The notes under the pieces are model-generated. The model did not search any database and had not been told where the DNA came from. It was given only the letters and a program-made list of their open reading frames with translations. The translations under genes were made by a program, and so were the position numbers. From Candidatus Dormiibacterota bacterium (GTDB taxonomy: Bacteria > Chloroflexota > Dormibacteria > Aeolococcales > Aeolococcaceae), in contig DATBEL010000066.1 in assembly GCA_036276135.1 (NCBI GenBank), positions 21,364 through 85,363 of the forward strand: a DNA stretch of 64,000 nucleotides, written 5' to 3'. Shown one piece after another: positions 25,322-55,204 of the stretch (within the stretch, counting starts at the first letter, position 1; each line of letters opens with the position of its first letter).

Positions 25322-26587
25322 TCAGACCGCCTCGTCCTCGTCGTCGAGGATGGAGAGCGAGGGCCGGCGCGCGAACACCGTCTGGCGCATCAGCCGGCCG
25401 AGCAGGTTGGGCATCCGGTAGCTCTCCAGCGGCACCTGCACAGGTTTGCGCTCGATGTTGCGTCGCGAGATGTGGATGCCGTGCTTGGGCAGGATGCGGC
25501 GGAGATAGCCCCAGGTGTCGTAGAGCCCGTTGCTGACCGATTCATACCCGTGCTGCAGCACCATCAGGCGTGCGCTGTACGACATCAGCTCGTGGAAGAA
25601 CATCTTCTCGTCATCGGGCCGCGGCTCGATGAGGAGGATGTCGACGTCGGGATGGTGGTTGCGGACCAGCTTGATGTGGTCGAGCAAGCCGTCGTGGAGC
25701 ATGCCGCGGAAGACCTGGTTGTAGACCCCGCGCATGCCCAGGTCGGCGAGGTGGTCGCCGAGCAGCTCGCGCACCCCCGCCGGCGTGTGCAGGTTGCGCA
25801 TGTCGACCGGGACGATGGGATTGATGGCGACGATGAGGGTGGCGCCGCGATCGACGGCCACGTCGATCGCCGAGATCCCCTTGATGCCGCCGTCGACGTA
25901 ATCCACGTCGTCGATGCGCACCGGCCGGAAGAGGATGGGGATGGCGCTGCTGGCCGCCGCCGCCATCGAGATGGGCACGTGGGCGCGCTTGTTGAAGCGT
26001 GAGAACACGACGCGCTGGCCGGAATCGAGCGCGCACGCCACGATGTGCAGCTCGGGATCGAGGCGGCGGAAGTCGTTGCTGAACTCGTCGCGCGTCAGCA
26101 GCCTCTCGAGGAAGCGCACCAGCTCCGTGTTGCTGAAGAAGCCGGACGGCAGCAGCGGGGTGAGCATCCCGACGATGTCGACGGGGTTGAGCTTGCCGGG
26201 ATGCCGGGCCAGCTCCCAGGCGATCTCCTGGGCGAGCCGCGGCAGCTTGAGCATGCGCGCCGCCGCCTCGGCGAGGTTGGGGCGGTAGAGGCCCCACGGC
26301 GTTGGCGGCCGCAGCATCTCGTTGCTCCCCTCGAGCCCCAGCGCCATGTCCGTCGGGGTGATGCCGTTGGCGAGGAGGGCGCCGATCATCGAGCCGGCGC
26401 TGGTGCCGACGTAGATGTCGAAATCATTGACGCTGCTGCCCACGAGCAGGTCGTCGAGCGCTCGCAGCGCGCCGATCTCGTAGGTCAGCCCGGTGATGCC
26501 CCCGCCACAGAGCACCAGCGCCCGCTTGCCGCCGGTGGGATCGGGGGCGACGCGCCGAACGGTCGTCGCATTCCTGCGGCTGGGCAT
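25322..26587 (-). CDS. Patatin-like phospholipase family protein
   Basis: The oxyanion motif GGGITG, the nucleophile elbow GTSAGS and the catalytic DGG are all present. Confidence 0.8.
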
Positions 26588-26635
26588 GGCGGGGATTATC
26601 GCCCGCGGGGGCTGCCCCGGCTACAGTGGCGCTCC

Positions 26636-28444
26636 GTGCCCAGCAAGCCACTCGACCTGATCCGCAACTTCTGCATCATCGCCCACATCGACCACGGCAA
26701 GTCGACGCTCGCCGATCGCCTGCTGGAGCGCACCGGGACAGTGGCGATGCGCGACATGCAGGACCAGCTGCTCGACACCCTCGACCTCGAGCGCGAGCGC
26801 GGCATCACCATCAAGGCGCAGGCGGTGCGCCTCGACCACACCGCTGCCGACGGTCTCACCTACCAGCTCAACCTCATCGACACGCCGGGCCACGTCGACT
26901 TCGCCTACGAGGTGTCACGCTCACTGGCCGCCTGCGAGGGCGCGCTGCTCGTGGTCGACGCCTCACAGGGCATCGAGGCCCAGACGCTGGCCAACGTCTA
27001 CGCCGCGCTCGAGGCCGACCTCGAGGTGATCCCGGTCATCAACAAGATCGACCTCCCGGCGGCCGACCCCGAGCTGGTGCGCCAGGAGATCGAGGATGTC
27101 ATCGGTCTGCCCGGCGATGGCGCGCTGCTCGCCAGCGCGCGCCAGGGCATCGGCATCGATGCCATCCTGGAGGCCATCGTCACCCGGGTCCCGCCGCCCT
27201 CCGGGCAGGTCGGCGCACCGCTCCAGGCCCTGATCTTCGACAGCAAGTACGACGTCTACCGCGGCGTCATCGTCTACGTGCGCGTCATGCACGGCGTGAT
27301 CCGCCAGGGACAGCGCATCCGCATGATGGCCACCGGCAAGGACTTCGTCGTCGACGAGGTCGGCGTCTTCCGTCCCCAGCCGACGTCGATGCGCTCGCTC
27401 AGCCCCGGTGAGGTCGGCTACGTGGTGGCTTCCATCAAGGACGTCCGCGACAGCAAGGTCGGCGACACCGTCACCGACGCCGACAACACCGCGCCTGCGG
27501 CGCTGCCCGGTTACCGGACGGTGACGCCGATGGTCTTCGCCGGCATCTTTCCGATCGACTCCGACAAGGTCCAGGAGCTCAAGGAGGCGCTGTCGAAGCT
27601 CAACCTCAACGACGCCTCCCTGGTATATGAACCCGAGTCGTCGGTGGCGCTCGGCTTCGGCTTCCGCTGCGGGTTTCTCGGGTTGCTGCACATGGAGATC
27701 GTGCAGGAGCGGTTGGAGAGAGAGTTCGATCTCGAGCTGCTGACCACGGCCCCGACCGTGGAGTACCGCGTGCGCTTGCGCGGCGGCGAGATGGTGGCGG
27801 TGGACAACCCGTCGATGCTGCCGGACCCCGCCAACATCGACGCCATCGAGGAACCGCGGACCCGGGCGACCATCTTCGTCCCCAAGGCGTACGTCGGCCC
27901 CCTCATGGAGCTCTGCCAGGATCGCCGCGGCGAGCTTCTCGACATGCAGTACCAGCCCGGCGACCGTGTCGCGCTGATCTACGACCTGCCGCTCGGCGAG
28001 ATCATCCACGACTTCTACGACCAGCTCAAGTCGCGCAGCCGGGGCTACGCGTCGCTCGACTATGAGATCACCGGCTTCCGCGCCGAGAAGCTTGTCAAGC
28101 TCGACATCCTCGTCGGGGGCCAGCGCGTCGACGCGCTCTCGATGATCGTCCATCGCGACAAGGCGGCGGTCCAGGGGCGCAAGCTCGCCGGGCGTCTGCG
28201 CAAGCTGATTCCCCGCCAGCTCTTCGAGGTGGCGATCCAGGCAGCCATCGGTGGCAAGATCGTCGCCCGCGAGACGGTGTCGGCGATGCGCAAGGACGTT
28301 CTCGCCAAGTGTTACGGCGGCGACATCACCCGCAAGCGCAAGCTGCTCGAGAAGCAGAAGGAAGGCAAGAAGCGCATGAAGCGCGTCGGCAACGTCGAGA
28401 TCCCGCAGGAGGCCTTCATGGCCATCCTCACGTTGGACGAGTAG
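26636..28444 (+). CDS. lepA: Translation elongation factor 4 (LepA)
   Basis: The N-terminus [21 protein letters not shown] matches LepA along its full length. The GTG start at 26636 gives a 602-aa protein. The ORF-track start at 26045 is a 5' artefact. Confidence 0.9.
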
Positions 28445-38520: not shown

Positions 38521-39435
38521 TCAGCCGCCGGGCGGCGGGTCGAACGGGTCACCCACCTCGGTCACCAGGCCGCGGGAGAAGAGGAGCGCCGCCGGCGGCA
38601 GGGTGCGCCGGCGATCCCACACCAGCGCCATGGTGCGGGCGATCGGTGGGTCCCGAAGTGGGATGACGACGACCTGGGCCGAGGGGGCCGGCAGCGGCAT
38701 GGGCATCAGGGTGATGCCCAGGCCGGCTTCCACGAGCCCCTGGACGATGCTGAAGTCGTCCCCCTCGTAGGCGACCTTGGTGGTCAGGCCCTGGGCCGCG
38801 AAGGCGTCGTCGATGACCTTGCGCAGCCCGCTGCGTGACCGGGGCAGGATCAGCGGTTCGTCGGCAAGGTCGGTGAGCGCGCACGAGGTGCGCCCGGTGA
38901 GCCGGTGGCCGATCGGCACCACCACGGCAACCCGCTCGCGGAAGAGCGGCACCATCTCCAGGTCCGGGGTGTTGACCGGTGGCGGACCGAGGATGCCCAG
39001 GTCGAAGTCGCCGGCGAGGACGCCGCTGGCCACCTCCGCCGTGGTTCCCTCCTCGAGGATGAACCGCACCCCCGGGTGGGCGCGCAGGAAGCGGGCCAGC
39101 CTCTCAGGCAGCCAGCGCGCTCCGACGGTATGGAGGAATCCGACGCGCACCTCGCCCGACTCGGCCGACACGGCGCCCTCGGCGTCGGCCACGGCGTCGC
39201 GCAGGTCGGCGAGCAGACGTTCGGCCCGGCCGACGAACCGTTTCCCTGCCTGCGTGAGACGTATGGAGCGTCCAATGCGTTCAAAAAGGGGGACACCGAT
39301 ATCCTGCTCGAGCCGGGCGATCTTGCGGCTGACCGTTGACGGATCTGCCTGAAGTGCGTCGGACGCCCGGCCGAGGTGCTCCACTCGCGCCACCTCGATG
39401 AAGGTCCTGAGCGCGTCGGCATTGATGCGATCCAT
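38521..39435 (-). CDS. LysR family transcriptional regulator
   Basis: The N-terminal HTH matches LysR (ALRTFIEVARVEHLGRASDALQADPSTVSRKIARLEQDIGVPLFER), with a LysR substrate-binding domain. The start was chosen at the internal ATG at 39435. Confidence 0.8.
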   Translation of the reverse strand: MDRINADALRTFIEVARVEHLGRASDALQADPSTVSRKIARLEQDIGVPLFERIGRSIRLTQAGKRFVGRAERLLADLRDAVADAEGAVSAESGEVRVGFLHTVGARWLPERLARFLRAHPGVRFILEEGTTAEVASGVLAGDFDLGILGPPPVNTPDLEMVPLFRERVAVVVPIGHRLTGRTSCALTDLADEPLILPRSRSGLRKVIDDAFAAQGLTTKVAYEGDDFSIVQGLVEAGLGITLMPMPLPAPSAQVVVIPLRDPPIARTMALVWDRRRTLPPAALLFSRGLVTEVGDPFDPPPGG

Positions 39436-39565
39436 GCAACAATCTGACCCGAAATGTGCTCTTGATGTCAATGGGCCGCCGGGGTAATCTCGAGCAGTGT
39501 GGTGACCCGAATGTCGACAATTCCACTGTCAGCAATCGCGGCATCAACCCAAGGAGATTTTTGAG

Positions 39566-39994
39566 TTGTTGATCGAGGATGCGACCCAAGAGGTGCATGA
39601 CGCGCGCAAGCGCCATCACCGGGAGATGGTCGAGCGTACCCGGCTGCGCAGGCTGGTCGAACGCGTCGACGAGGTGATCAGTGCCTGCGAGGAGATTCAC
39701 CTCCAGAGCATCAAGGAGACCCCCGCCGACCTCAAGTCGCGCGCCGAGGACGTGTTCGCGTTTGCGCGCAGCGCGGTGTCGAAGACCGGCGACCGCGAGG
39801 CGCTGGCGATCGTCGAGGAGGCGATCGGGCGGCGCCAGGTCAAGATCACCGAGATCATGGACATCCTCTGGACCATCCAGGAGATCGTCTTCGACCTCAT
39901 GCTGCCGTGGCGCACCGAGCTGCCCGAGGACGTCGAGCCCGAGGGGCCGATCACGGGCGCTCCCGACTGGAGGCGCTGGACGGCCGTCGCCTGA
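39566..39994 (+). CDS. Hypothetical protein (142 aa)
   Basis: An AAGGAG ribosome-binding site lies 9 nt before the TTG start. Third codon positions are G/C-rich. I could not recognise the family. Confidence 0.5.
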   Translation: MLIEDATQEVHDARKRHHREMVERTRLRRLVERVDEVISACEEIHLQSIKETPADLKSRAEDVFAFARSAVSKTGDREALAIVEEAIGRRQVKITEIMDILWTIQEIVFDLMLPWRTELPEDVEPEGPITGAPDWRRWTAVA

Positions 39995-40009
39995 CCTCGG
40001 CGCGGTCAG

Positions 40010-42955
40010 TCAGCCGTCTTCGACACCGCGGCCCTCGTCGCACACGGTGCGGTACTCGCAGCGCGGGCACTGCCACGTCGACGGACGGGGCGGGAAGCTG
40101 CCAGAGCTCCAGGCAGCGGCCATGTCACGCGCGGTGACCGAGAGGTACCGGTATGAGGTGTCGAGCTGGTCACGGGTGAACTCGATGCGCGTCACCTCGG
40201 CGGTCTGCAGGTGGTGCAGCTCGACCGCCACCTCGTCGGTGCGATCTCTGCGTGACAGCGCGACGGCGTAGGCGCGCACCTGGATGTCCTTGCGCAGCCG
40301 CTCCTCGTCGCGGGGCGGCCCGGTCTTGTAGTCGACGACGGTGGCCGCGCCGGCTGCGCTCGCATCGAGCCTGTCCCAACGGCCATGGACGTCGGCGTGG
40401 TCCAGCGCCAGGCTGAACGTCTGCTCGACGGCTGTCACCTCGGCGGCGCGCCACGCGTTCGTGCGCACGTACTGTCGCAGCTGTTGCTCGCCGAGCTCGC
40501 GCAGCTCGGGGTTGCTGCCCTTCGGCCCCCGCGATGCCGCCCACGCGTCGTTCCAGATGGCGGCCACCGCGTCCTCGCTGACGGCCTCGCCGGCCTGGCG
40601 GCGCATGGCGGCGTTCTGCAGCACGGCATGGATGAGCGTGCCGTACCAGCTCTGCAGCGACTCGCGCACCGGCATGTGGTAACGGTGCCGGTACTCGAAG
40701 CGGCGGGGACACTGCTTGAAGACACGGATGTCAGAAACTCCGAGCGAGAGGCGTTCAGCCGTTGGCCGGCCCGCGGCGCGGACCGGGCGGGGATGCAGTG
40801 GGGCGGCGCGGGGAACGTCACGGGCGCGCACCGCGTCGGTGGTGGCCACCGGGGCGAGGAAGGGGGAGGGGGCCTCATCGCGAAAGCTCTGCGGGTAACG
40901 CCGGGCGCGCGACAGCACCAGGCGATCGCGCGCTCGGGTGGCCGCCACGTAGAACAGGCGGCGCTCCTCGTCGACGACCGCATCGCCCGGCGGCGGCAGC
41001 TCCGGCACGAGCGCGCCGGGGAGCGTCAACGCCGACCTCGCCGTCCCGGCGCGTCCCGGCCAGCGCGCCTCGACACAGCTGGTGATGATCACCACCGGCC
41101 ACTCCAGGCCCTTGGCAGAATGAGCGGTGAGCAGGACGACGCCGTCGTCGGCAGCCTCGATGCCGGCGAGCTCGTCGGCGTGACGGCTGTTGCGCAGCAC
41201 GTCGAGGTAGTGCAGCGCGGTGGTCAGTCGCCGGTCGTCGCTCCAGTCGGCAAACGACTCGAGCAGCTCGCCGAACTTGTTGAGGTTGGCGCCGGTCTGC
41301 ATGCGGGCCAGCTCGGCCTGGAGGTCGAGCATGCCGAGGAAGTCGCTCCGCTCGAGAGCCATGTAGAAGATCTCGCGGACATCCTCTCGCCCGCTCATCG
41401 CGTGCAACGCCTCGATGTCGGCGATGCAGCGCGCAGCGCCGGCGGAGTCGTGCGCGTCCAGCCCGCAGCCATCCCCGTCGCGAAGCACAGCGAGCAGTGG
41501 CGTGTCGTGCTCACCGCACAGCTGCACAAGTGCCAGCCGGCCGCGGTTGCTGACCTTCCACGATGGCATCTGCAGGCAGCGCAGCAGTGCCTGCGAGTCG
41601 GACGGGTCGGCGGCGGCACTGAGGAGGGCGAGGGTGTCCTTGATCTCCGGCTGCGTGAAGAAACCGCGACCGCCCTGCACCTGGTAGGGGACGCCGACCT
41701 CGCGGAGCGCGCCGACCGCGGCACGCATGTCGGCGTGGCGGCGGAAGAGCCACGCAATGTCCGCCGCGCGCACACCGGCGTCGATCAGCAGCCGGCACTC
41801 CGCCGCGACGCCGAGCACCTCACTGCGCTCGTCGGCGGCCTCCCACAGCTCCACGGCATCGCCGTCACCACGGTCGGCCACCAGGGTCTTGGCGATGCGC
41901 GACGCGGGGTTGGCGGCACCGATCACCGCCTGCGACGCAGCGACGATCGGGGCGGTGCTGCGGTAGTTGTGCGACAGCGTGATGCCGGCATGCTCGGGGT
42001 AGATGCGCGAGAAGCGATCGAGGTTGGCGAGGCTGGCCCCGCGGAACTTGTAGATCGCCTGGTCGTCGTCGGCGACGACCAGGATGTTGCGATGGGACGC
42101 CACCAGCGTCTCGACCAACCGCGCCTGGGCATGGTTGGTGTCCTGGTACTCGTCGACCATGACGTACTCGATGGCGTCGCACACCGCGTGGCGCGGCGCG
42201 TCGTGCTCGCGCAGGAGCTGTTCGGCGCGAAGGATGGTGTCGTCGTGGTCGAGGACCGCATGACGCAGGTAGCGCTCGTCGAGCGCCGCGTACACGGCGG
42301 CGACCTCAGCCTGGCGTTCGAGCAGGGCGCGCTCGGCGGGGTCGTCGCAGCTGGCCAGCTCCGCCTGCGCCCACTGCGCGTACTGCGCCGGCGTCACCAG
42401 CTCCTGCTTCGCCTTGCCGATGATGTCGAGGATCGAGTCGACCAGGTCGTGGGGGCGGAGTGGGTTCCAGAGCGTGCGCGGCCTGAGCTCGGCCAGCACC
42501 GCCTCGAGGTGCAGCCAGCGTTCGGCCTCGTCGGCGATGCGAAACGCCGGGGAGATTCCCGCCAGCCAGCCCCACTCCCGCACCAGCCGCCCCGCGAATG
42601 AGTGGTAGTTGCTGAGCGGTGGCTCGCCGGCGAACGGGCCATGCCCCTCCTCCGCGCGCGAACGCATCTCGCCGGCGGCCTTGCGCGTGTAGGTGAGCAC
42701 CAGCTGCTGCGCCGGGCCGACTCCCTCTCCGACCAGCGCAAGGAACCGCTCCACGATGACGCGCGTCTTGCCGCTCCCCGGCCCGGCGAGCACCAGGCAG
42801 GGACCCTGGCGGTGCGCGACCGCGGCACGCTGGTCGGGGTCGAGGTCGGGCCTCACAACAGGATCCTCGAGCGATGGCAGGCGAACGGATGTACGCCGTG
42901 ACCCACAAGGGTACACCCGCGCGGGCGACCACCGCGCGGCCGTTCGCGAGAACAT
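40010..42955 (-). CDS. UvrD/REP-family SF1 DNA helicase fused to a C-terminal RecB/Cas4-like PD-(D/E)xK nuclease with a 4-Cys cluster (single-chain helicase-nuclease)
   Basis: The UvrD N-terminus is present (DPDQRAAVAHRQGPCLVLAGPGSGKTRVIVERF), with helicase motifs through LLTAHSAKGLEWPVVII and VAATRARDRL. The C-terminal nuclease carries CPRRFEY, GTLIH, VVDYKTG, QVRAYA and QCPRCEYRTVC. The ORF-track start at 43528 overlaps the divergent hydratase gene. The real start is probably the ATG at 42955 or the GTG near 42856 (VRPDLDPDQ...), which has a GAGGA ribosome-binding site. Confidence 0.8.
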   Translation of the reverse strand: MFSRTAARWSPARVYPCGSRRTSVRLPSLEDPVVRPDLDPDQRAAVAHRQGPCLVLAGPGSGKTRVIVERFLALVGEGVGPAQQLVLTYTRKAAGEMRSRAEEGHGPFAGEPPLSNYHSFAGRLVREWGWLAGISPAFRIADEAERWLHLEAVLAELRPRTLWNPLRPHDLVDSILDIIGKAKQELVTPAQYAQWAQAELASCDDPAERALLERQAEVAAVYAALDERYLRHAVLDHDDTILRAEQLLREHDAPRHAVCDAIEYVMVDEYQDTNHAQARLVETLVASHRNILVVADDDQAIYKFRGASLANLDRFSRIYPEHAGITLSHNYRSTAPIVAASQAVIGAANPASRIAKTLVADRGDGDAVELWEAADERSEVLGVAAECRLLIDAGVRAADIAWLFRRHADMRAAVGALREVGVPYQVQGGRGFFTQPEIKDTLALLSAAADPSDSQALLRCLQMPSWKVSNRGRLALVQLCGEHDTPLLAVLRDGDGCGLDAHDSAGAARCIADIEALHAMSGREDVREIFYMALERSDFLGMLDLQAELARMQTGANLNKFGELLESFADWSDDRRLTTALHYLDVLRNSRHADELAGIEAADDGVVLLTAHSAKGLEWPVVIITSCVEARWPGRAGTARSALTLPGALVPELPPPGDAVVDEERRLFYVAATRARDRLVLSRARRYPQSFRDEAPSPFLAPVATTDAVRARDVPRAAPLHPRPVRAAGRPTAERLSLGVSDIRVFKQCPRRFEYRHRYHMPVRESLQSWYGTLIHAVLQNAAMRRQAGEAVSEDAVAAIWNDAWAASRGPKGSNPELRELGEQQLRQYVRTNAWRAAEVTAVEQTFSLALDHADVHGRWDRLDASAAGAATVVDYKTGPPRDEERLRKDIQVRAYAVALSRRDRTDEVAVELHHLQTAEVTRIEFTRDQLDTSYRYLSVTARDMAAAWSSGSFPPRPSTWQCPRCEYRTVCDEGRGVEDG

Positions 42956-42961
42956 CGCGGC

Positions 42962-43723
42962 ATGACCAAGGTTGTGCAGCGGCGCGACGACGACGTGCTC
43001 ATCGTGACCATCAACCGCCCCGAGGTGCGCAATGCCATCGACGGCGAGACGGCCGAGGCGCTGGCCATCGCGTTCGGCGACTTCGACGCCGACGAGTCGC
43101 TGGCCGTGGCGGTGCTGACCGGGGCAGGCGGGTGCTTCTGCGCCGGGGCTGACCTCCGCGCCGTCGGCGAGCTGCGCGCCGAGGTGGACGGCGACGCACC
43201 GCTGGGTGTCTCGCGATTGACGCTGGGCAAGCCGGTGATCGGCGCCGTCGAGGGTCACGCCGTCGCCGGCGGCCTCGAGCTCGCACTGTGGTGCGACCTT
43301 CGCGTCGCTGCGCGGGGCGCGGTGTTCGGGGTGTTCTGCCGCCGTTTCGGTGTCCCGCTGATGGATGGGGGCACCGTCAGGCTGACGCGAATCGTCGGCC
43401 ACGGCCGGGCGCTCGACATGATCCTCACCGGCCGTGCCGTCGGCGCGGAGGAGGCGCTGCTGATGGGACTCGCCAACCGCCTCGTGCCGGATGGCCACGC
43501 CCTGCCGGAGGCACTGCGGCTCGCGCACCAGCTGGCCGCCCTCCCCCAGAGGTGCATGCGCAGCGATCGCATGTCCGTGTACGAGCAGTGGTCAGCGTCG
43601 ACCGCCGACGCCCTCGTCAACGAAACCCGGCGCGGCATCGCGGTCCTCAACAGCGGCGAGACCGCCGAGGGTGCGCAGCGATTCACCGCCGGTGAGGGAC
43701 GCCACGGACGCGCGATGAGCTGA
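42962..43723 (+). CDS. Enoyl-CoA hydratase/isomerase (crotonase) family protein
   Basis: The crotonase fold is present (LIVTINRPEVRNAID ... AVEGHAVAGGLELALWCDLRVA). Confidence 0.8.
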   Translation: MTKVVQRRDDDVLIVTINRPEVRNAIDGETAEALAIAFGDFDADESLAVAVLTGAGGCFCAGADLRAVGELRAEVDGDAPLGVSRLTLGKPVIGAVEGHAVAGGLELALWCDLRVAARGAVFGVFCRRFGVPLMDGGTVRLTRIVGHGRALDMILTGRAVGAEEALLMGLANRLVPDGHALPEALRLAHQLAALPQRCMRSDRMSVYEQWSASTADALVNETRRGIAVLNSGETAEGAQRFTAGEGRHGRAMS

Positions 43724-45901: not shown

Positions 45902-46477
45902 GTGGCCGCACTGGTCCTCGGCCTCGGCAACCCCGGCGGCGAGTACCGCGGCACGCGGCACAACGTCGGCTGGATGGCGCTCGACGATCTCGAGGAGCGC
46001 GGACGCTTCGGCCGCCAGCGTCGCGAGGGCCCGGCGAAGGTCCGCGAGGGCGCCATCGACGGCTACGACATGGTGACCGCCCGGCCGCAGACGTACATGA
46101 ACGTGTCCGGTCGTGCCGCGGTGCACCTGCTGCGCAAGTACGGGGTGCCAACGGAGGACCTGATCGTTGTTCACGACGACGTGGACCTGCCGCTGGGCCG
46201 GATCAGGCTGAAGCGAGGCGGGGGCGCGGCCGGCCAGAAGGGGGTGCTGTCCATCGCCGACGCGCTGCGCACCCAGGAATTCATGCGCGTGCGCATCGGC
46301 GTGTCGCGTCCGCTGGAACGCGACCAGATGGTCGACTACGTCCTCGATCGTTTCACGCCCGACGAACGCGAGCGGCTGCGCCTGGTCATCCCGCGCGCCG
46401 CGGACGCGGTCGTCGCCCTGGTGCGCAACGGCCTCGACAGCGCCATGAGTGAGTACAACCGTGCCCCTGACGACTGA
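45902..46477 (+). CDS. pth: Peptidyl-tRNA hydrolase
   Basis: The N-terminus LVLGLGNPGGEYRGTRHNVGW and the MNVSGRA motif match Pth. Confidence 0.85.
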   Translation: MAALVLGLGNPGGEYRGTRHNVGWMALDDLEERGRFGRQRREGPAKVREGAIDGYDMVTARPQTYMNVSGRAAVHLLRKYGVPTEDLIVVHDDVDLPLGRIRLKRGGGAAGQKGVLSIADALRTQEFMRVRIGVSRPLERDQMVDYVLDRFTPDERERLRLVIPRAADAVVALVRNGLDSAMSEYNRAPDD

Positions 46478-49400
46478 CGTGGCCACGCTCCGCTCGCGGC
46501 TGGACGGCGTTGCGGCGCTGAGGGCGCTGCGCGACCTGGAGCGAGGTGTCGTCGGCGGCGTGCCCGGCGGAGCCGTGGCGCTGGTCGCGTGGTGGCTGCG
46601 TGAGGTCACCGGTTGCGCGGTGGTGCTGGTGGGAGCCAACGCCGAGTCGCTCAGCAGCGATGCGGCGTTGTGGGGCGGCACCGCGGCGCTCGGCCTGTTC
46701 CCCGCCGCCGACACTCCGCCGTTCGACCGCGTCCCGCCGTCCGAGGAGGTCACCCGCCGCCGCCTGGCGTCGCTGACCATGCTCGCGAGCCCTGGCGTGC
46801 CGCTGATCGTCGCCTCGCCTGCCGGGTTGCTCCGGCCGGCGCTGCCGGTGGACCTCGTCCGCGGCGAGTCGATGCGCCTGCGCAGCGGGGAGCAACACTC
46901 GCGTGACGACTTCATCCGCCGCGCCGTCGACCTCGGCTACCGCCGGGTCAGCGCGGTCTCGGGCCCCGGTGAGATCGCGGTCCGCGGCGGCATCGTCGAC
47001 GTCTTCGGGCTCGACCGCGCCCGGCCCTGGCGCGCGGAGTGGTTCGGTGACCAGGTCGACGAGCTACGCGCCTTCGACGTGGAGACACAGACGTCGGTGG
47101 CCAAGCTCGCCGAGGTGGCAATCTGGCCGGCGCGCGAGCTCGACCTCCGCGCCGCCACCGTGGATCGCGCGCTCACCGCCGTCGACCTGCTCGATGTGTC
47201 GTCCTGCCGCCCCGAGGTGCGCGAGGCGTGGGAGCGAGACCGGGCTCAGCTCGGCGAGGGCGTCTACGACGAGGGTGTCGACCTGTTCTATCCATACCTG
47301 GTCGGCGACAATCCCGCGACCCTCCTCGACCACGCCGGCGACGACGCCATCGTGCTGCTGGCCGGTGGTCGAGAGGCGTTCCTGCGCGCGGCGCAGCGGC
47401 ACGCCGACGAGATCGAGGGTCTGCGCACCCAGGAGGAGGAGCGCGGCGAGCTGCCCGCCGGCGCGCGCGCCGGGCTGCTCGCCCCGGAGCAGCTCCTCAC
47501 GGCCCTCGAGCGTCGTCGCTGCATCGAGCTGCTGCGCGAGCCCGACGGCGACGCGGTCCTCGACTGGCGCGGCGTCGACGGCTTCGTCGGCCGGATGAGC
47601 GCATTCAGCGGTGCGGTGCGGGCGCGGATGGTGGCCGGCGCCGGTGTCCTCGTGGTCAGCCGCCAGCAACATCGCGTCGAGGAGCTGGTGCGCGAGGACG
47701 GGCTCGACCCCGTGGATGTCGACGAGCTGGACGCCGCCGCCACCGAGGTGCCGGCGGGCGCCCTGGCGGTGACCGGCGGCGACCTGTCGCAGGGGTTCTC
47801 CGCGGGCGACGCCGGCTTCGACGTCTACACCGACCACGAGCTCTTCGGCGTGGTCAAGCGCCGCGGCTCGCCGCTGGCGCGCGGCGCTCGCCGCGCCGAG
47901 TCCACGTCGGCGCGCGGCGCCCGCCGGGCCGCATCGGGGAGCAGCGCGCACACCGCGTTCGTGATGCAGTTCGCGCCCGGTGACGTGGTCGTGCACCGTG
48001 ACCACGGCATCGGCCGCTTCCTCGAGATGCGCACCGTGAGCGACGCCCTCGGCGAGCACGAGTACATGACCATCGAATACGCCGACGGCGACAAGCTCTT
48101 CGTCCCCGTCGACCACCTCGACAGGGTCGACCGCTACGTGGGCGGCGCGGATTCCAATCCCCACCTCTCACGGCTCGGCAGTGGTGAGTGGGAGCGGGTC
48201 AAGCGCCGCGTCAAGGAGCGCACCGAGGAGGTGGCGCGCGAGCTGCTGACGCTGTACTCGCGGCGCGAGATGGCCCACGGACATGCGTTCACCCCTGACG
48301 GCACCTGGCAGCGGGAGCTCGAGGAGTCGTTCCCCTACCAGGAGACTCCCGACCAGGAGATGGTGCTGGACGAGATCAAGCGCGACATGGAGTCGTCGCG
48401 GCCGATGGACCGGGTGGTCTGCGGTGACGTCGGCTTCGGCAAGACCGAGCTCGCCCTGCGCGCGGCGTTCAAAGCGGCCAGCGAGGGCCGGCAGGTGGCT
48501 GTTCTGGTCCCGACCACTGTCCTCGCCCAGCAGCACTTCCTGACCTTCACCGAACGGCTCCTGCCGTTCCCGATCACGGTGCGCCAGCTCTCGCGATTCT
48601 GCAGCGACGCCGACATCGCGGCCACCCTGACCGGTCTGCGCAGCGGCGCCGTGGACATCGTCGTCGGCACCCACCGCCTGCTTCAGCGCGACGTCGAGTT
48701 CAGCAACCTCGGCCTGGTCATCATCGACGAGGAGCAGCGGTTCGGCGTCCTGCAGAAGGAGCGGTTCAAGTCGCTTCGCGTGGCCGTCGATGTGCTCTCG
48801 CTGTCGGCCACGCCGATACCGCGAACCCTGCACATGTCGCTCGCCGGCATCCGCGACCTCTCGGTGATCCAGACGCCCCCCGAGGAGCGGCAGCCGATCA
48901 AGACGTACGTGACCGCGCGCGAGGCGTCGCTGGTGCGTGAGGTGATCACCCGCGAGCTGGCTCGCGGAGGCCAGGTGTTCTTCCTGCACAACCGCGTCCA
49001 GACCATCGAGAAGCACGCCGAGGAGCTGCGCGAGCTCGTCCCGGAGGCGCGCATCGCGGTCGGCCACGGTCAGATGCCCGAGCACGCGCTCGCCGCGGTG
49101 ATGCGCGCGTTCGGTGACGGTGAGATCGACGTGCTGGTGTGCACCACCATCATCGAGTCGGGCCTCGACATCCCCAACGCCAACACCATCGTCATCAATG
49201 ACGCGCACCGCCTCGGACTGGCGCAGCTCTATCAGCTGCGCGGCCGCGTCGGCCGCGCCGGGCAGCGGGCGTACGCCTACCTTCTCTATCCACCGGACAG
49301 GTCGCTCACCGAGAAGGCGGACAAGCGGCTCGACGTCATCGGCGAGCTGCAGGACCTCGGCGCCGGCTTCAAGCTGGCCATGCACGACCTCGAGATCCGC

Positions 49401-49985
49401 GGCGCCGGCAACCTCCTCGGTGAGGAGCAACACGGCGAGATCGCAGCCGTCGGCCTCGAGCTCTACAACACGTTGTTGCGCCAGGCGGTGACCGCGCTGC
49501 AGGGCAAGCCGATCCTCGAGTCGCCCGCCCAGGTGAGCGTGTCGCTCCCGGTCAAGGCCTTCCTCCCGGTCACCTACGTGACCGATGAGCGGCTGCGCCT
49601 GCGCTGTTACCAGGACCTGGCGGCGTGCGCGACCGAGAGTGACCTCGAGCGGTCAGCCCGCGGCCTGGTCGATCGGTTCGGACCGCTGCCGGACGCTGCG
49701 GAGGCGCTCGTCTACTCGCTGCGGTGTCGGTTGCTGGCCGCCGCCGGCGGCGTCACGGCGGTGGAGTCGGGCGCCGGCGGGGTGCGCGTCCAGCTCGCGC
49801 TCGACCACGGGCTCGACCTGCCCGCGCTGGTCAGCCAGTGGTCAACGCAGGCATCGGCGACGGCGACGCGCATCGTGGTGACCACGGAGCCGGTGCGCCG
49901 CGGCATCGCCTGGCGCGACGTGCTCCTCGGAGTCCTCCGCGAGCTCGGTCGCCTGCAGAGGGTGCGCGCCCGGGTGGCCGTGTAG
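46449..49985 (+). CDS. mfd: Transcription-repair coupling factor Mfd
   Basis: At about 1178 aa, the protein has a UvrB-homology N-terminus, an RNAP-interaction domain, SF2 helicase motifs (VCGDVGFGKTELALRAAFKA, DEEQRFG) and a TRG motif region. Confidence 0.9.
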   Translation: MSTTVPLTTDVATLRSRLDGVAALRALRDLERGVVGGVPGGAVALVAWWLREVTGCAVVLVGANAESLSSDAALWGGTAALGLFPAADTPPFDRVPPSEEVTRRRLASLTMLASPGVPLIVASPAGLLRPALPVDLVRGESMRLRSGEQHSRDDFIRRAVDLGYRRVSAVSGPGEIAVRGGIVDVFGLDRARPWRAEWFGDQVDELRAFDVETQTSVAKLAEVAIWPARELDLRAATVDRALTAVDLLDVSSCRPEVREAWERDRAQLGEGVYDEGVDLFYPYLVGDNPATLLDHAGDDAIVLLAGGREAFLRAAQRHADEIEGLRTQEEERGELPAGARAGLLAPEQLLTALERRRCIELLREPDGDAVLDWRGVDGFVGRMSAFSGAVRARMVAGAGVLVVSRQQHRVEELVREDGLDPVDVDELDAAATEVPAGALAVTGGDLSQGFSAGDAGFDVYTDHELFGVVKRRGSPLARGARRAESTSARGARRAASGSSAHTAFVMQFAPGDVVVHRDHGIGRFLEMRTVSDALGEHEYMTIEYADGDKLFVPVDHLDRVDRYVGGADSNPHLSRLGSGEWERVKRRVKERTEEVARELLTLYSRREMAHGHAFTPDGTWQRELEESFPYQETPDQEMVLDEIKRDMESSRPMDRVVCGDVGFGKTELALRAAFKAASEGRQVAVLVPTTVLAQQHFLTFTERLLPFPITVRQLSRFCSDADIAATLTGLRSGAVDIVVGTHRLLQRDVEFSNLGLVIIDEEQRFGVLQKERFKSLRVAVDVLSLSATPIPRTLHMSLAGIRDLSVIQTPPEERQPIKTYVTAREASLVREVITRELARGGQVFFLHNRVQTIEKHAEELRELVPEARIAVGHGQMPEHALAAVMRAFGDGEIDVLVCTTIIESGLDIPNANTIVINDAHRLGLAQLYQLRGRVGRAGQRAYAYLLYPPDRSLTEKADKRLDVIGELQDLGAGFKLAMHDLEIRGAGNLLGEEQHGEIAAVGLELYNTLLRQAVTALQGKPILESPAQVSVSLPVKAFLPVTYVTDERLRLRCYQDLAACATESDLERSARGLVDRFGPLPDAAEALVYSLRCRLLAAAGGVTAVESGAGGVRVQLALDHGLDLPALVSQWSTQASATATRIVVTTEPVRRGIAWRDVLLGVLRELGRLQRVRARVAV

Positions 49986-54825: not shown

Positions 54826-54897
54826 GGCGGCGTGGAGCAGTGGCAGCTCGTCGGGCTCATAACCCGAAGGTCGCCGGTTCGAGTCCGGCCGCCGCAA
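54826..54897 (+). tRNA. tRNA-Met (anticodon CAT), initiator-like tRNA-fMet
   Basis: The sequence is near-identical to E. coli tRNA-fMet through the D, anticodon and T arms (TGGAGCAG...GCTCGTCGGGCTCATAACCCGAAGGTCG.CGGTTC). The three G-C pairs in the anticodon stem (GGG/CCC) are present. The 1:72 pair is mismatched (G-A by my count). CCA is not encoded. Confidence 0.7.
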
Positions 54898-55107: not shown

Positions 55108-55180
55108 GGCGGCATAGCTCAGTTGGTAGAGCGCCCGGCTCATACCCGGTATGTCCCTGGTTCGAATCCAGGTGCCGCCA
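55108..55180 (+). tRNA. tRNA with anticodon CAT: elongator tRNA-Met or lysidine-type tRNA-Ile2
   Basis: A cloverleaf folds: acceptor GGCGGCA/TGCCGCC, D arm GCTC-AGTTGGTA-GAGC, anticodon loop CTCATAC, T arm CCTGG-TTCGAAT-CCAGG. It lies 25 nt upstream of tilS. Confidence 0.7.
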
Positions 55181-55204
55181 CACCGCCGCTCAGACTGGTG
55201 TGTG

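Follow-up and report, generated by a model that had tools for sequence, protein, structure and literature searches.

Resection of double-strand breaks in bacteria is understood through the multi-subunit machines RecBCD, AddAB, and AdnAB. The UvrD, PcrA, AdnB, AddA, and RecB motors have 3′→5′ polarity; AddB, Dna2, and Exo5 are nucleases that target 5′ strands or 5′ ends, and the motor of Dna2 and Bad is of the SF1B type and runs 5′→3′. AdnAB is an obligate heterodimer encoded by a two-gene operon, in which AdnB is the driving motor and AdnA is a motor-like subunit carrying an Fe-S nuclease; the Fe-S cluster of AdnA is visible by cryo-EM, and its nuclease acts on 5′ strands or 5′ ends (PMC13000450), a preference also reported for the Fe-S nuclease Cas4. 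For AddAB, the AddA nuclease is reported to lack an Fe-S cluster and the motor-like domain of AddB to be an inactivated helicase (PMC3321194).

Fusions of the UvrD-Cas4-like type were described computationally in 2017 as the largest branch of pfam12705 (Hudaiberdiev et al. 2017, PMC5704561). The published UvrD-Cas4 clade is monophyletic, is found mainly in Proteobacteria and Firmicutes, and lies mostly in defense contexts, with restriction-modification (R-M) or Dcm/Vsr genes; an ancillary role in defense is the only published inference for these fusions (PMC5704561). Our literature search returned no biochemical study of any fusion-family member and, among the matches listed, no DNA-repair survey of Dormibacterota. 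Here, we describe a helicase-nuclease gene from a Candidatus Dormibacteraeota MAG, located in a 64-kb window (the whole stretch of DNA that was analyzed). The gene is real and intact and encodes a one-chain DNA helicase-nuclease that is another member of the already catalogued UvrD-Cas4-like fusion family; its use is probably DNA repair.

Gene Boundaries and Start Codon

The helicase-nuclease coding sequence (40010..42856, minus strand) encodes 948 residues, from a GTG start at 42856 to a TGA stop at 40010–40012. The longest ORF containing it, 40010..43528 (−), runs 567 nt into a divergent enoyl-CoA hydratase gene (42962..43723, +; Pfam ECH_1, 1.4e-43), a neighbor that lies outside the system. 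The initial annotation had pointed out this overlap, as well as an in-frame ATG at 42955 that sits only 7 nt away from the hydratase start codon (ATG 42962), and had preferred the GTG at 42856; these observations hold. The GTG at 42856 is the true start. The NCBI record P0001 is identical over its full length to the 948-residue product, so the public record is already on the short start; the description of an overlapping "annotated start" does not stand, as the raw window carries no annotation. The alignment of Dormibacterial orthologs that had been proposed as a check places their N-termini 4–5 residues ahead of a conserved LDxDQ, which fits GTG 42856, and GC at the third codon position (GC3) climbs to 0.87–0.93 immediately downstream of 42853. 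A GAGGA ribosome-binding site, read from the sequence at 42864..42868 (−), is separated from the GTG by a 7-nt spacer. The ATG at 42955 and another in-frame GTG at 42916 were rejected as starts, having no ribosome-binding site, no ortholog support, and a codon-position GC that is not coding-like.

The upstream extension of the ORF (42857..43528, −) is non-coding, and no ortholog in the alignment carries it. From 42962 upward it is a shadow reading frame antisense to the hydratase gene: GC1 in the extension frame is 0.83–1.0 and GC3 only 0.7–0.8, except in the outermost 30 codons, where GC3 is 0.93, a pattern that mirrors the gene on the opposite strand. A high-GC shadow of the divergent hydratase gene accounts for the longer ORF, and the locus is a clean case of such an ORF exaggerating gene length, which is relevant to annotation practice. 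A second example of a shadow ORF is present in the window at lepA.

The Motor Domain

Residues 5–651 (40904..42844, −) comprise an SF1A motor of the UvrD/PcrA type, as judged from Pfam, NCBIfam, PDB, and Foldseek comparisons. A Pfam domain search, also suggested at the outset, matched UvrD-helicase (residues 5–285, 1.5e-59), UvrD_C (residues 292–651, 2.7e-40), PDDEXK_1, and Cas_Cas4 on one chain. The Walker A motif, GPGSGKT (42764–42784, −), and the DEYQD motif (42140–42154, −) were verified by coordinate; motif III, VADDDQAIYKFRGA, lies within 42032–42076 (−) and motif VI at 40925–40951 (−). Every ATPase and helicase motif is intact, and none varies among the 30 diverse family members compared.

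The best full-length NCBIfam match of the 948-residue protein is PcrA (TIGR01073, 351 bits against a cutoff of 911), and its best PDB matches are PcrA (2.9e-81) and UvrD, with bit scores of 277 for PcrA, 164 for AdnB, and 69 for AddA. The motor is thus nearest to PcrA/UvrD and is not AddB-like or AdnA-like. The AddB/AdnAB-type architecture initially assigned to this protein survives as a motor-nuclease end-resection plan but not as a description of the motor. In Foldseek searches with the AlphaFold model, UvrD/PcrA are the best matches for the motor, and the whole-chain fold also matches AddA, AdnA, AdnB, and RecB. The motor is connected to the nuclease by a poorly conserved linker of ~50 residues (652–705; 40742..40903, −), in which pLDDT falls below 50 at residues 688–697. 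The domain placement in the model is not superposable on AdnB or AddA (full-length rmsd about 29–33 Å).

The Nuclease Domain and Its Predicted Fe-S Module

Residues 706–940 (40037..40741, −) correspond to a PD-(D/E)XK nuclease of the Cas4/AdnA type (Pfam PDDEXK_1, 1.2e-33), with a Cas_Cas4 match over residues 824–939 (3.6e-5). The predicted active site is intact, comprising D828 in GRWDRLD (40364–40384, −), the DYK motif D842-Y-K844 (40325–40333, −), and Q859..Y863 in QVRAY (40268–40282, −), each verified by coordinate. D842 aligns with AdnB D1014, the residue altered in a nuclease-dead mutant.

In terms of cluster ligation, four family-invariant cysteines are the predicted Fe-S ligands: Cys716, in a CP motif (40709..40711, −), and the triad C930-x2-C933-x5-C939 (CPRCEYRTVC; 40040..40069, −). 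When the nuclease-domain family profile was compared with the PDB, the best matches were the AdnB nuclease (4e-16) and the AdnA nuclease (1e-14), and there were further matches to Cas4 (4ic1, 4e-10), ACE1 (9iab, 3e-10), the AddB nuclease core (6.5e-7), and, weakly, Exo5; the RecB nuclease gave only E = 0.1. The AdnA match spans the whole nuclease domain, including all four cysteines, such that C716 aligns with the cysteine of the AdnA "DCPLRW" segment and the triad aligns with "C-ANC-PVRSS-C". The four-cysteine module, an Fe-S module by prediction, is homologous to those of AdnA and Cas4. The earlier proposal that these cysteines are cluster ligands gains support from this family-profile alignment with the AdnA and Cas4 ligands.

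Distribution and Conservation of the Fusion Family

Members of the ~950-residue fusion family occur in Dormibacterota, Chloroflexota, Acidobacteriota, and Patescibacteria; of 10 distant-representative clusters, for which taxonomy was sparse, one was assigned to Chloroflexota. Over 100 cluster representatives can be aligned with the 948-residue protein along the full length, and the fusion is present in at least 120 clusters across Dormibacterota. The invariant set (Walker A, DExQD, motifs III, V, and VI, C716, H743, D828, D842, K844, Y863, C930, C933, and C939) is kept in 20 Dormibacterial orthologs and in 30 diverse members at 25–61% identity, and 122 of the 150 cluster representatives retain every feature.

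In a profile search of genome contigs, the matches listed were mostly plain PcrA/UvrD loci and included no Dormibacterial ortholog of the fusion, but they comprised at least 17 fusion loci from other phyla and a Dormibacterial PcrA locus (L044). We checked 19 other fusion loci (L001–L003 and 16 more) for a partner gene over 6–10 kb or to the contig end, and none has an adjacent paralogous partner, the sole exception being a helicase-only gene in L005. The gene had been noted as solitary, which is correct; this is no peculiarity of the locus but the usual condition in this large family. In small-genome MAGs, labeled Candidatus Aceula and Gammaproteobacteria, the immediate neighbors of the fusion are recJ (L004), rmuC (L005), and ruvB-queA (L017), an adjacency that, at 3 of about 10 loci inspected, could be coincidence in compact genomes. 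The remaining neighbors scanned are housekeeping genes or have no Pfam match, and no restriction-modification or CRISPR genes were found among the scanned neighbors of these fusion loci.

Genomic Neighborhood

The helicase-nuclease gene and the hydratase gene are separated by a divergent intergenic region of 105 nt (42857..42961), the matching gap in L001 being 87 nt; in L003, a SIR2-family gene occupies the hydratase position. A consensus scan of 39400–43300 for sigma-70 promoters and terminators gave no match, the consensus being uninformative for this phylum. On the other side lies a convergent, conserved ORF of 142 residues (39566..39994, +) that has no Pfam match and no PADLOC match, and ORFs of 142 and 147 residues occupy the same position in L001 and L003. 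The gene order mfd-pth-ybeY-rpsU-X-[helicase-nuclease]-142aa-lysR-rny is common to genomes whose orthologs are 81% and 63% identical, with mfd 3.6 kb from the helicase-nuclease gene, and the base composition of the gene matches that of its neighbors. Nowhere in the 64-kb window is there another motor or nuclease from this family, so the absence of a partner gene that had been remarked on at this locus extends to the window, and the adjacent two-gene arrangement of AdnAB is not found here.

Comparison with Characterized Systems

Like the AdnAB subunits, the fusion has a UvrD-like motor followed by a C-terminal RecB-like nuclease, and the best solved relatives of its nuclease are AdnB and AdnA (PDB 6PPJ, 6PPR, 7SJR, 9NP6). 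By motif comparison, the aromatic residue of motif III, F271 (in IYKFRGA), takes the place held in AdnB by the Trp325 pawl. It differs from AdnAB in combining an active motor with a predicted Fe-S nuclease in one chain with no adjacent paralog, in having a motor nearer to PcrA/UvrD, and in being ~100–150 residues shorter. With Bacillus subtilis AddAB (PDB 3U44, 4CEH) it shares the AddA plan of SF1A motor plus nuclease, a related whole-chain fold, and the Fe-S PD-(D/E)XK nuclease of AddB; it differs in having intact motor motifs and a predicted Fe-S module on the same chain, and the sequence similarity is weak (69 bits to AddA, and the AddB match confined to the nuclease core). An active motor plus an Fe-S nuclease matches no single AddAB or AdnAB subunit. 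The NCBIfam scores are well below cutoff for AddA (TIGR02785, 135 against 708), AddB (TIGR02773, 14.6 against 904), and RecB (TIGR00609, 124 against 696), and no RecC- or RecD-like domains were found among the large window ORFs scanned.

The nuclease core, with its C-x(n)-C-x2-C-x5-C module, is shared with Cas4 (SSO0001, PDB 4IC1), ACE1, and, weakly, Exo5. Cas4, however, is a stand-alone protein of about 200 residues encoded in a cas operon, whereas this nuclease is joined to a helicase; the TIGR00372 score of the protein, 51.8, falls short of the cutoff (65), and the window ORFs scanned include no cas gene and show no CRISPR context. In Dna2 and Bad, the domain order is reversed. The UvrD-Cas4 fusions have the same overall plan, with an N-terminal UvrD-like SF1 motor, a C-terminal PDDEXK_1/Cas4-like nuclease, and four cysteines in one chain, often encoded by a stand-alone gene. 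The clade studied here differs in lying in core-genome synteny (Dormibacterota) or beside recJ, ruvB, or rmuC; the typical, although not obligatory, Type III R-M or Dcm/Vsr context is replaced by housekeeping synteny.

Favored and Alternative Explanations

The explanation that we favor, with moderate confidence, is that this gene is a vertically inherited part of the Candidatus Dormibacteraeota core genome and encodes a stand-alone, single-polypeptide, ATP-dependent helicase-nuclease of the UvrD-Cas4-like family that serves recombinational repair. It would instead be one subunit of an AdnAB- or AddAB-like heterodimer if a partner were encoded elsewhere in the genome, of which 64 kb was inspected, and both the AdnB/AdnA kinship of its nuclease and its whole-chain fold match to AddA, AdnA, AdnB, and RecB are in keeping with that arrangement. 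However, adnA and adnB form a two-gene operon (PMC13000450), the sole AddAB-like locus seen (L088) has both genes adjacent, and neither the window nor the 19 other fusion loci has a second family member adjacent; moreover, the single chain unites the active motor and predicted Fe-S nuclease that heterodimers split between subunits, and its motor is nearer to PcrA/UvrD than to AdnB or AddA. We consider a missing partner very unlikely. The PcrA/UvrD resemblance raises another possibility, namely that the fusion is the lineage's own PcrA/UvrD, acting in excision, mismatch, and transcription-coupled repair and in fork clearing, with the nuclease replacing the RNA-polymerase-binding Tudor domain. 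The top family and PDB matches and the conserved synteny with nearby mfd agree with this assignment, and PcrA/UvrD/Rep are the best sequence and structure matches for residues 5–690, with all helicase motifs present. Yet the fusion has a nuclease in place of the C-terminal Tudor domain, and does not reach the equivalog cutoffs for PcrA, UvrD, and Rep (for PcrA, by a wide margin). In a neighbor-joining tree, from which the PMC5704561 data-set sequences and AdnA, AdnB, AddA, and RecB were left out, the fusions, including four plasmid-borne ones, separate from 12 helicase-only PcrA/UvrD in 100 of 100 bootstraps; the grouping obtained in this tree is in line with the monophyly reported in PMC5704561. 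A highly conserved canonical PcrA/UvrD with a Tudor domain is also present in Dormibacterota (>120 clusters), and PF21196, found in the Dormibacterial PcrA of L044, is absent from the 948-residue protein. The existence of this separate enzyme makes the fusion an additional, specialized paralog; as both are widespread in the phylum, we infer that they occur together in one genome. A PcrA/UvrD identity is therefore unlikely.

The published context of the UvrD-Cas4 clade suggests, alternatively, an ancillary anti-phage or anti-plasmid enzyme, as proposed for fusions found with Type III R-M or Dcm/Vsr (PMC5704561). Plasmid-borne relatives do lie in defense-like islands, adjoining methylase, multiubiquitin/ThiF, and helicase genes, and their motors nest among the fusions in the neighbor-joining tree. 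These proteobacterial forms nevertheless score far lower against the family nuclease profile (57–72 bits, against 150–300) and have an extra N-terminal region of ~190 residues. PADLOC models of the GajB/UvrD type match the motor, but they cover only the generic UvrD motor and were rejected as evidence for defense; Gabija would also have a GajA-like (OLD-family nuclease) neighbor, which is lacking. Among the window ORFs scanned, no R-M, Dcm, Vsr, cas, or GajA gene is near the helicase-nuclease, and PADLOC found no defense partner for it. Together with the conserved housekeeping synteny, the native base composition, and the conservation across the phylum in at least 120 clusters, these observations make a role in defense quite unlikely.

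Proposed Mechanism and Significance

For the stand-alone helicase-nuclease, we propose by analogy with the characterized enzymes that, at a DNA end or fork, the motor would track 3′→5′ on one of the strands, unwinding the DNA, while the tethered, predicted Fe-S nuclease would thread and cut single-stranded DNA. The characterized Fe-S PD-(D/E)XK nucleases considered here (AdnA, Cas4, AddB, Dna2, and Exo5) act on 5′ strands or ends, so the displaced 5′ strand is the likeliest substrate; once it is cut, a 3′ tail would be available to RecA. The active form may be a monomer or else a homodimer mimicking the AdnA-AdnB pair, and the likely role of the enzyme would be recombinational repair through the processing of double-strand breaks or stalled forks.

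More tentatively, the housekeeping clade of Dormibacterota, Chloroflexota, Acidobacteriota, and Patescibacteria might be a self-sufficient, one-chain end-resection machine that replaces RecBCD, AddAB, or AdnAB and resembles an undivided ancestor of AdnA and AdnB. Such a machine would join a 3′→5′ UvrD-type motor in cis with a 5′-strand Fe-S nuclease, in a monomer or homodimer. We regard this as a possibility that is, on balance, doubtful. One chain with an active SF1A motor and an Fe-S nuclease would provide a minimal model of how unwinding is coupled to strand-specific cutting. The fusion could also reveal how recombination starts in lineages with small or unusual genomes, such as uncultured Dormibacterota and Patescibacteria, and, for so large and conserved a family, on which our search returned no biochemical work, a single biochemical study would annotate thousands of genes.

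Domain Architecture of the Helicase-Nuclease

In terms of domain composition, Pfam divides the 948-residue product of window positions 40010–42856 (reverse strand) into UvrD-helicase (residues 5–285), UvrD_C (residues 292–651), and PDDEXK_1 (residues 706–940; 1.2e-33, accompanied by a weak Cas_Cas4 match). The initial annotation, which had read a UvrD motor and a C-terminal PD-(D/E)XK nuclease on one chain, is borne out by this search, and the identity and architecture of the protein are nearly certain. Judged by sequence, the motor is nearest to PcrA/UvrD: the NCBIfam scores are 351 bits for PcrA, 135 for AddA, and 124 for RecB, each under the family cutoff, and a search of PDB sequences returns PcrA at 277 bits, UvrD at 250, UvrD1 at 209, AdnB at 164, and AddA at 69. 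An AlphaFold model computed from the orthologue alignment (mean pLDDT 83, pTM 0.79) was compared with known structures using Foldseek, in which the motor matches UvrD and PcrA. Whole-chain matches are to AddA, AdnA, AdnB, and RecB, with poor global superposition; the model therefore does not fix the relative placement of the motor and nuclease halves.

Reading Frame and Start Codon

The window has a G+C content of about 71% throughout, and the helicase-nuclease ORF (reverse strand) runs from 43528 down to a TGA stop at 40010–40012, overlapping the divergent enoyl-CoA hydratase gene (42962–43723, forward strand; Pfam ECH_1, 1.4e-43) by 567 nt. The in-frame start candidates near its 5′ end are ATG 42955 (7 nt away from the ATG of the hydratase gene), GTG 42916, and GTG 42856, the last being the only one of the three with a Shine-Dalgarno sequence (GAGGA, 42868–42864; spacer 7 nt). 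GC3 in the helicase frame climbs to 0.87–0.93 immediately downstream of 42853. Upstream of 42962 the same frame has GC1 of 0.83–1.0 and GC3 of 0.7–0.8, except in the outermost 30 codons (GC3 0.93), a codon-position pattern that mirrors the gene on the opposite strand. GTG 42856, already preferred in the initial annotation, is the right start because its 948-residue product is identical over the full length to an NCBI protein, P0001 ([quoted passage not shown]), and because most of 19 aligned Dormibacterial orthologues begin 4–5 residues ahead of a conserved LDxDQ motif. The short start is thus already used in the public record. The LepA ORF (26045–28444, forward strand) is likewise about 200 codons overlong, with its GTP_EFTU domain beginning at residue 206 and its extension entering a divergent patatin-like gene (25322–26587, reverse strand); as at the helicase start, the excess length is a high-GC shadow-ORF artefact.

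The Predicted Fe–S Nuclease Domain

A nuclease-domain profile built from 18 diverse family members was searched against PDB sequences. It matches the AdnB nuclease at 4e-16, in an alignment that ends ahead of the C-terminal cysteines, and AdnB has Asp-Pro at the position of the family's first Cys-Pro. The match to the AdnA nuclease (1e-14) covers the entire domain: the cysteine of AdnA “DCPLRW” aligns with the first cysteine of the family, and “C-ANC-PVRSS-C” aligns with the C-x2-C-x5-C triad. Because the cysteines align with known Fe–S ligands, the misalignment that the initial annotation had allowed for is not found. Weaker matches are to Cas4 SSO0001 (4ic1; 4e-10), ACE1 (3e-10), and the AddB core (6.5e-7). 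The aspartate of the D-Y-K motif, Asp842, pairs with AdnB Asp1014 in the profile search, as seen by comparing wild-type and D1014A chains. In AdnAB, the Fe–S cluster of the AdnA subunit is visible at the DNA fork by cryo-EM, and the 5′ strand is the one cut by the AdnA nuclease (PMC13000450).

Absence of a Nearby Partner Gene

Every ORF in the window and in 83 fetched loci was searched with family HMMs for the motor and the nuclease, the flanks of the fusion loci being covered for 6–10 kb per side, or less at contig ends. No second copy of either domain is present among the window ORFs, the large ones of which are all housekeeping genes by Pfam (PPDK, DnaG, LepA, HrcA, MiaB-like, FtsH, IleRS, MazG, Mfd, Pth, and RNase Y). 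Nor is a second family copy found in comparison loci L001–L010, L012, L017, L029, L033, L049, L066, and L079, with the exception of one helicase-only gene in L005. Since the window and these flanks hold no other copy apart from that gene, the solitary state is the rule for the family; the absence of a nearby partner noted in the initial annotation stands, but it is not peculiar to this locus, and with the window and these flanks as the sequence covered, a partner gene at an unlinked site is an unlikely alternative. In contrast to the solitary fusions, adnAB is operonic (PMC13000450), and an AddAB-like locus on a Deinococcus plasmid comprises two genes. The latter (L088, 4239–10213, Deinococcus deserti plasmid 2) has a classical AddB-like gene and an AddA-like gene annotated in three fragments, which may reflect a pseudogene or a sequencing frameshift.

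Genomic Context

The gene order mfd-pth-ybeY-rpsU-X-[helicase-nuclease]-142-aa ORF-lysR-rny recurs in Dormibacterial genomes with orthologues at 81% and 63% identity. The single variable element is X, an enoyl-CoA hydratase (with an MFS transporter in the window) or a SIR2-family gene. The codon-position composition of the helicase-nuclease agrees with that of its neighbours, and it is a vertically inherited core gene.

The 142-aa ORF (39566–39994, forward strand) is convergent with the helicase-nuclease, the stop codons lying 15 nt apart; it is apparently helical and has no match in Pfam or PADLOC. Two other Dormibacterial loci have an ORF of similar size at this position: L001 (12860–13288, reverse strand, 142 aa) and L003 (12923–13366, reverse strand, 147 aa). 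In the window as in these two loci, pth (45902–46477, forward strand) and mfd (46449–49985, forward strand) overlap, here by 29 nt, which suggests translational coupling inside the conserved rpsU-ybeY-pth-mfd block. Directly downstream of ileS lie two tRNA-Met (CAT) genes (54826–54897 and 55108–55181, forward strand), 210 nt apart, which may be an initiator and an elongator, or include one tRNA-Ile2 precursor.

In small-genome, low-GC MAGs, the direct neighbours of the fusion gene include recJ (L004, 3684–5366), rmuC (L005, 4947–5948), and ruvB-queA (L017, 8929–11024). The remaining scanned neighbours encode tRNA synthetases, groEL, murJ, femAB, or rsmE, or lack a Pfam match; no R-M, Dcm/Vsr, or cas genes are found among the scanned neighbours of these loci.

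Family Distribution and Relation to Other Helicases

The source organism is a Candidatus Dormibacteraeota MAG, and orthologues at 58–100% identity form at least 120 clusters (90% identity clustering). When 1.84 billion cluster representatives were searched exhaustively, the family proved larger, with more than 100 clusters at 50% identity containing proteins of about 930–1000 residues that align end to end with query residues 5–940 at 25–45% identity. Invariant in 30 diverse members are the Walker A residues (Gly27, Gly29, Lys30, and Thr31), D235-E236-x-Q238-D239, motifs III, V, and VI, and, in the nuclease, Cys716, His743, Asp828, Asp842, Lys844, Tyr863, Cys930, Cys933, and Cys939. The nuclease domain, C-terminal Cys triad, Walker A, and DExQD are retained together in 122 of 150 representatives, many of the others being fragments. 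Among the matches listed in a scan of GTDB species genomes, full-length members come from MAGs labelled Chloroflexi, Acidobacteria, Patescibacteria, Doudnabacteria, Saccharibacteria, Peribacteria, Miltoncostaeales, and Gammaproteobacteria. Within this large family the helicase-nuclease is typical, and it is no anomaly of its locus.

Dormibacterota also have a canonical PcrA/UvrD with a C-terminal Tudor domain (PF21196), found on Dormiibacterota contig L044 (5989–8172, forward strand) and 33% identical to the fusion motor. Its orthologues form more than 120 clusters and, at 86–94% identity across the 120 listed, are unusually well conserved in sequence. Because both proteins occur in the phylum, we infer that the fusion is an additional, specialised paralogue and not the PcrA of the lineage. 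In a neighbour-joining tree of motor domains, 100 of 100 bootstraps support a split between the fusions, all on one side, and 12 helicase-only PcrA/UvrD sequences.

Hudaiberdiev et al. 2017 (PMC5704561) catalogued UvrD–Cas4-like fusions as the largest branch of pfam12705, with a monophyletic helicase, tree leaves dominated by Proteobacteria and Firmicutes, contexts that are mostly Type III R-M or Dcm/Vsr, and a predicted ancillary defence role. Fusions of this type that are borne on plasmids share 25–29% identity with the query and differ from it in carrying about 190 additional N-terminal residues and in residing in defence-like islands; the nuclease profile scores 57–72 bits against the proteobacterial plasmid fusions versus 150–300 in the present clade. 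They still nest among the other fusions in the motor tree. Plasmids of Acinetobacter pittii (L084, 5069–9805) and Pseudomonas koreensis (L086, 5017–9826) share a three-gene mobile cassette with genes for a sigma-70/sigma-24 factor, for a hypothetical protein, and for a UvrD-nuclease fusion of 1130–1141 residues; in L084 this cassette adjoins multiubiquitin/ThiF/DUF6527 genes as well as a second UvrD-like gene. The family is known from this computational catalogue; no biochemical work on a single-chain member turned up in our literature search.

Proposed Mechanism and Implications

The finding of the initial annotation is real and its reading largely correct. A 3′→5′ polarity is common to UvrD, PcrA, AdnB, AddA, and RecB, and by analogy the motor, whose motif III aromatic residue is Phe271, would move 3′→5′ on its tracking strand. 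AddB, Dna2, and Exo5 share the 5′ behaviour of AdnA and Cas4, and the Fe–S nuclease belongs to the class containing the latter two. Cas4 is described in PMC3466216 as a 5′→3′ exonuclease. Taking motor polarity and nuclease class together, the simplest model would be a single-chain or homodimeric enzyme that starts unwinding at a DNA end and digests the 5′ strand it displaces; RecA would then be provided with a 3′ tail. A role in repair or recombination is the somewhat favoured reading; the strand-specific model, drawn by analogy, is more tentative. The clade may be an end-resection enzyme that is minimal and self-contained, serving lineages that include Dormibacterota and Patescibacteria.
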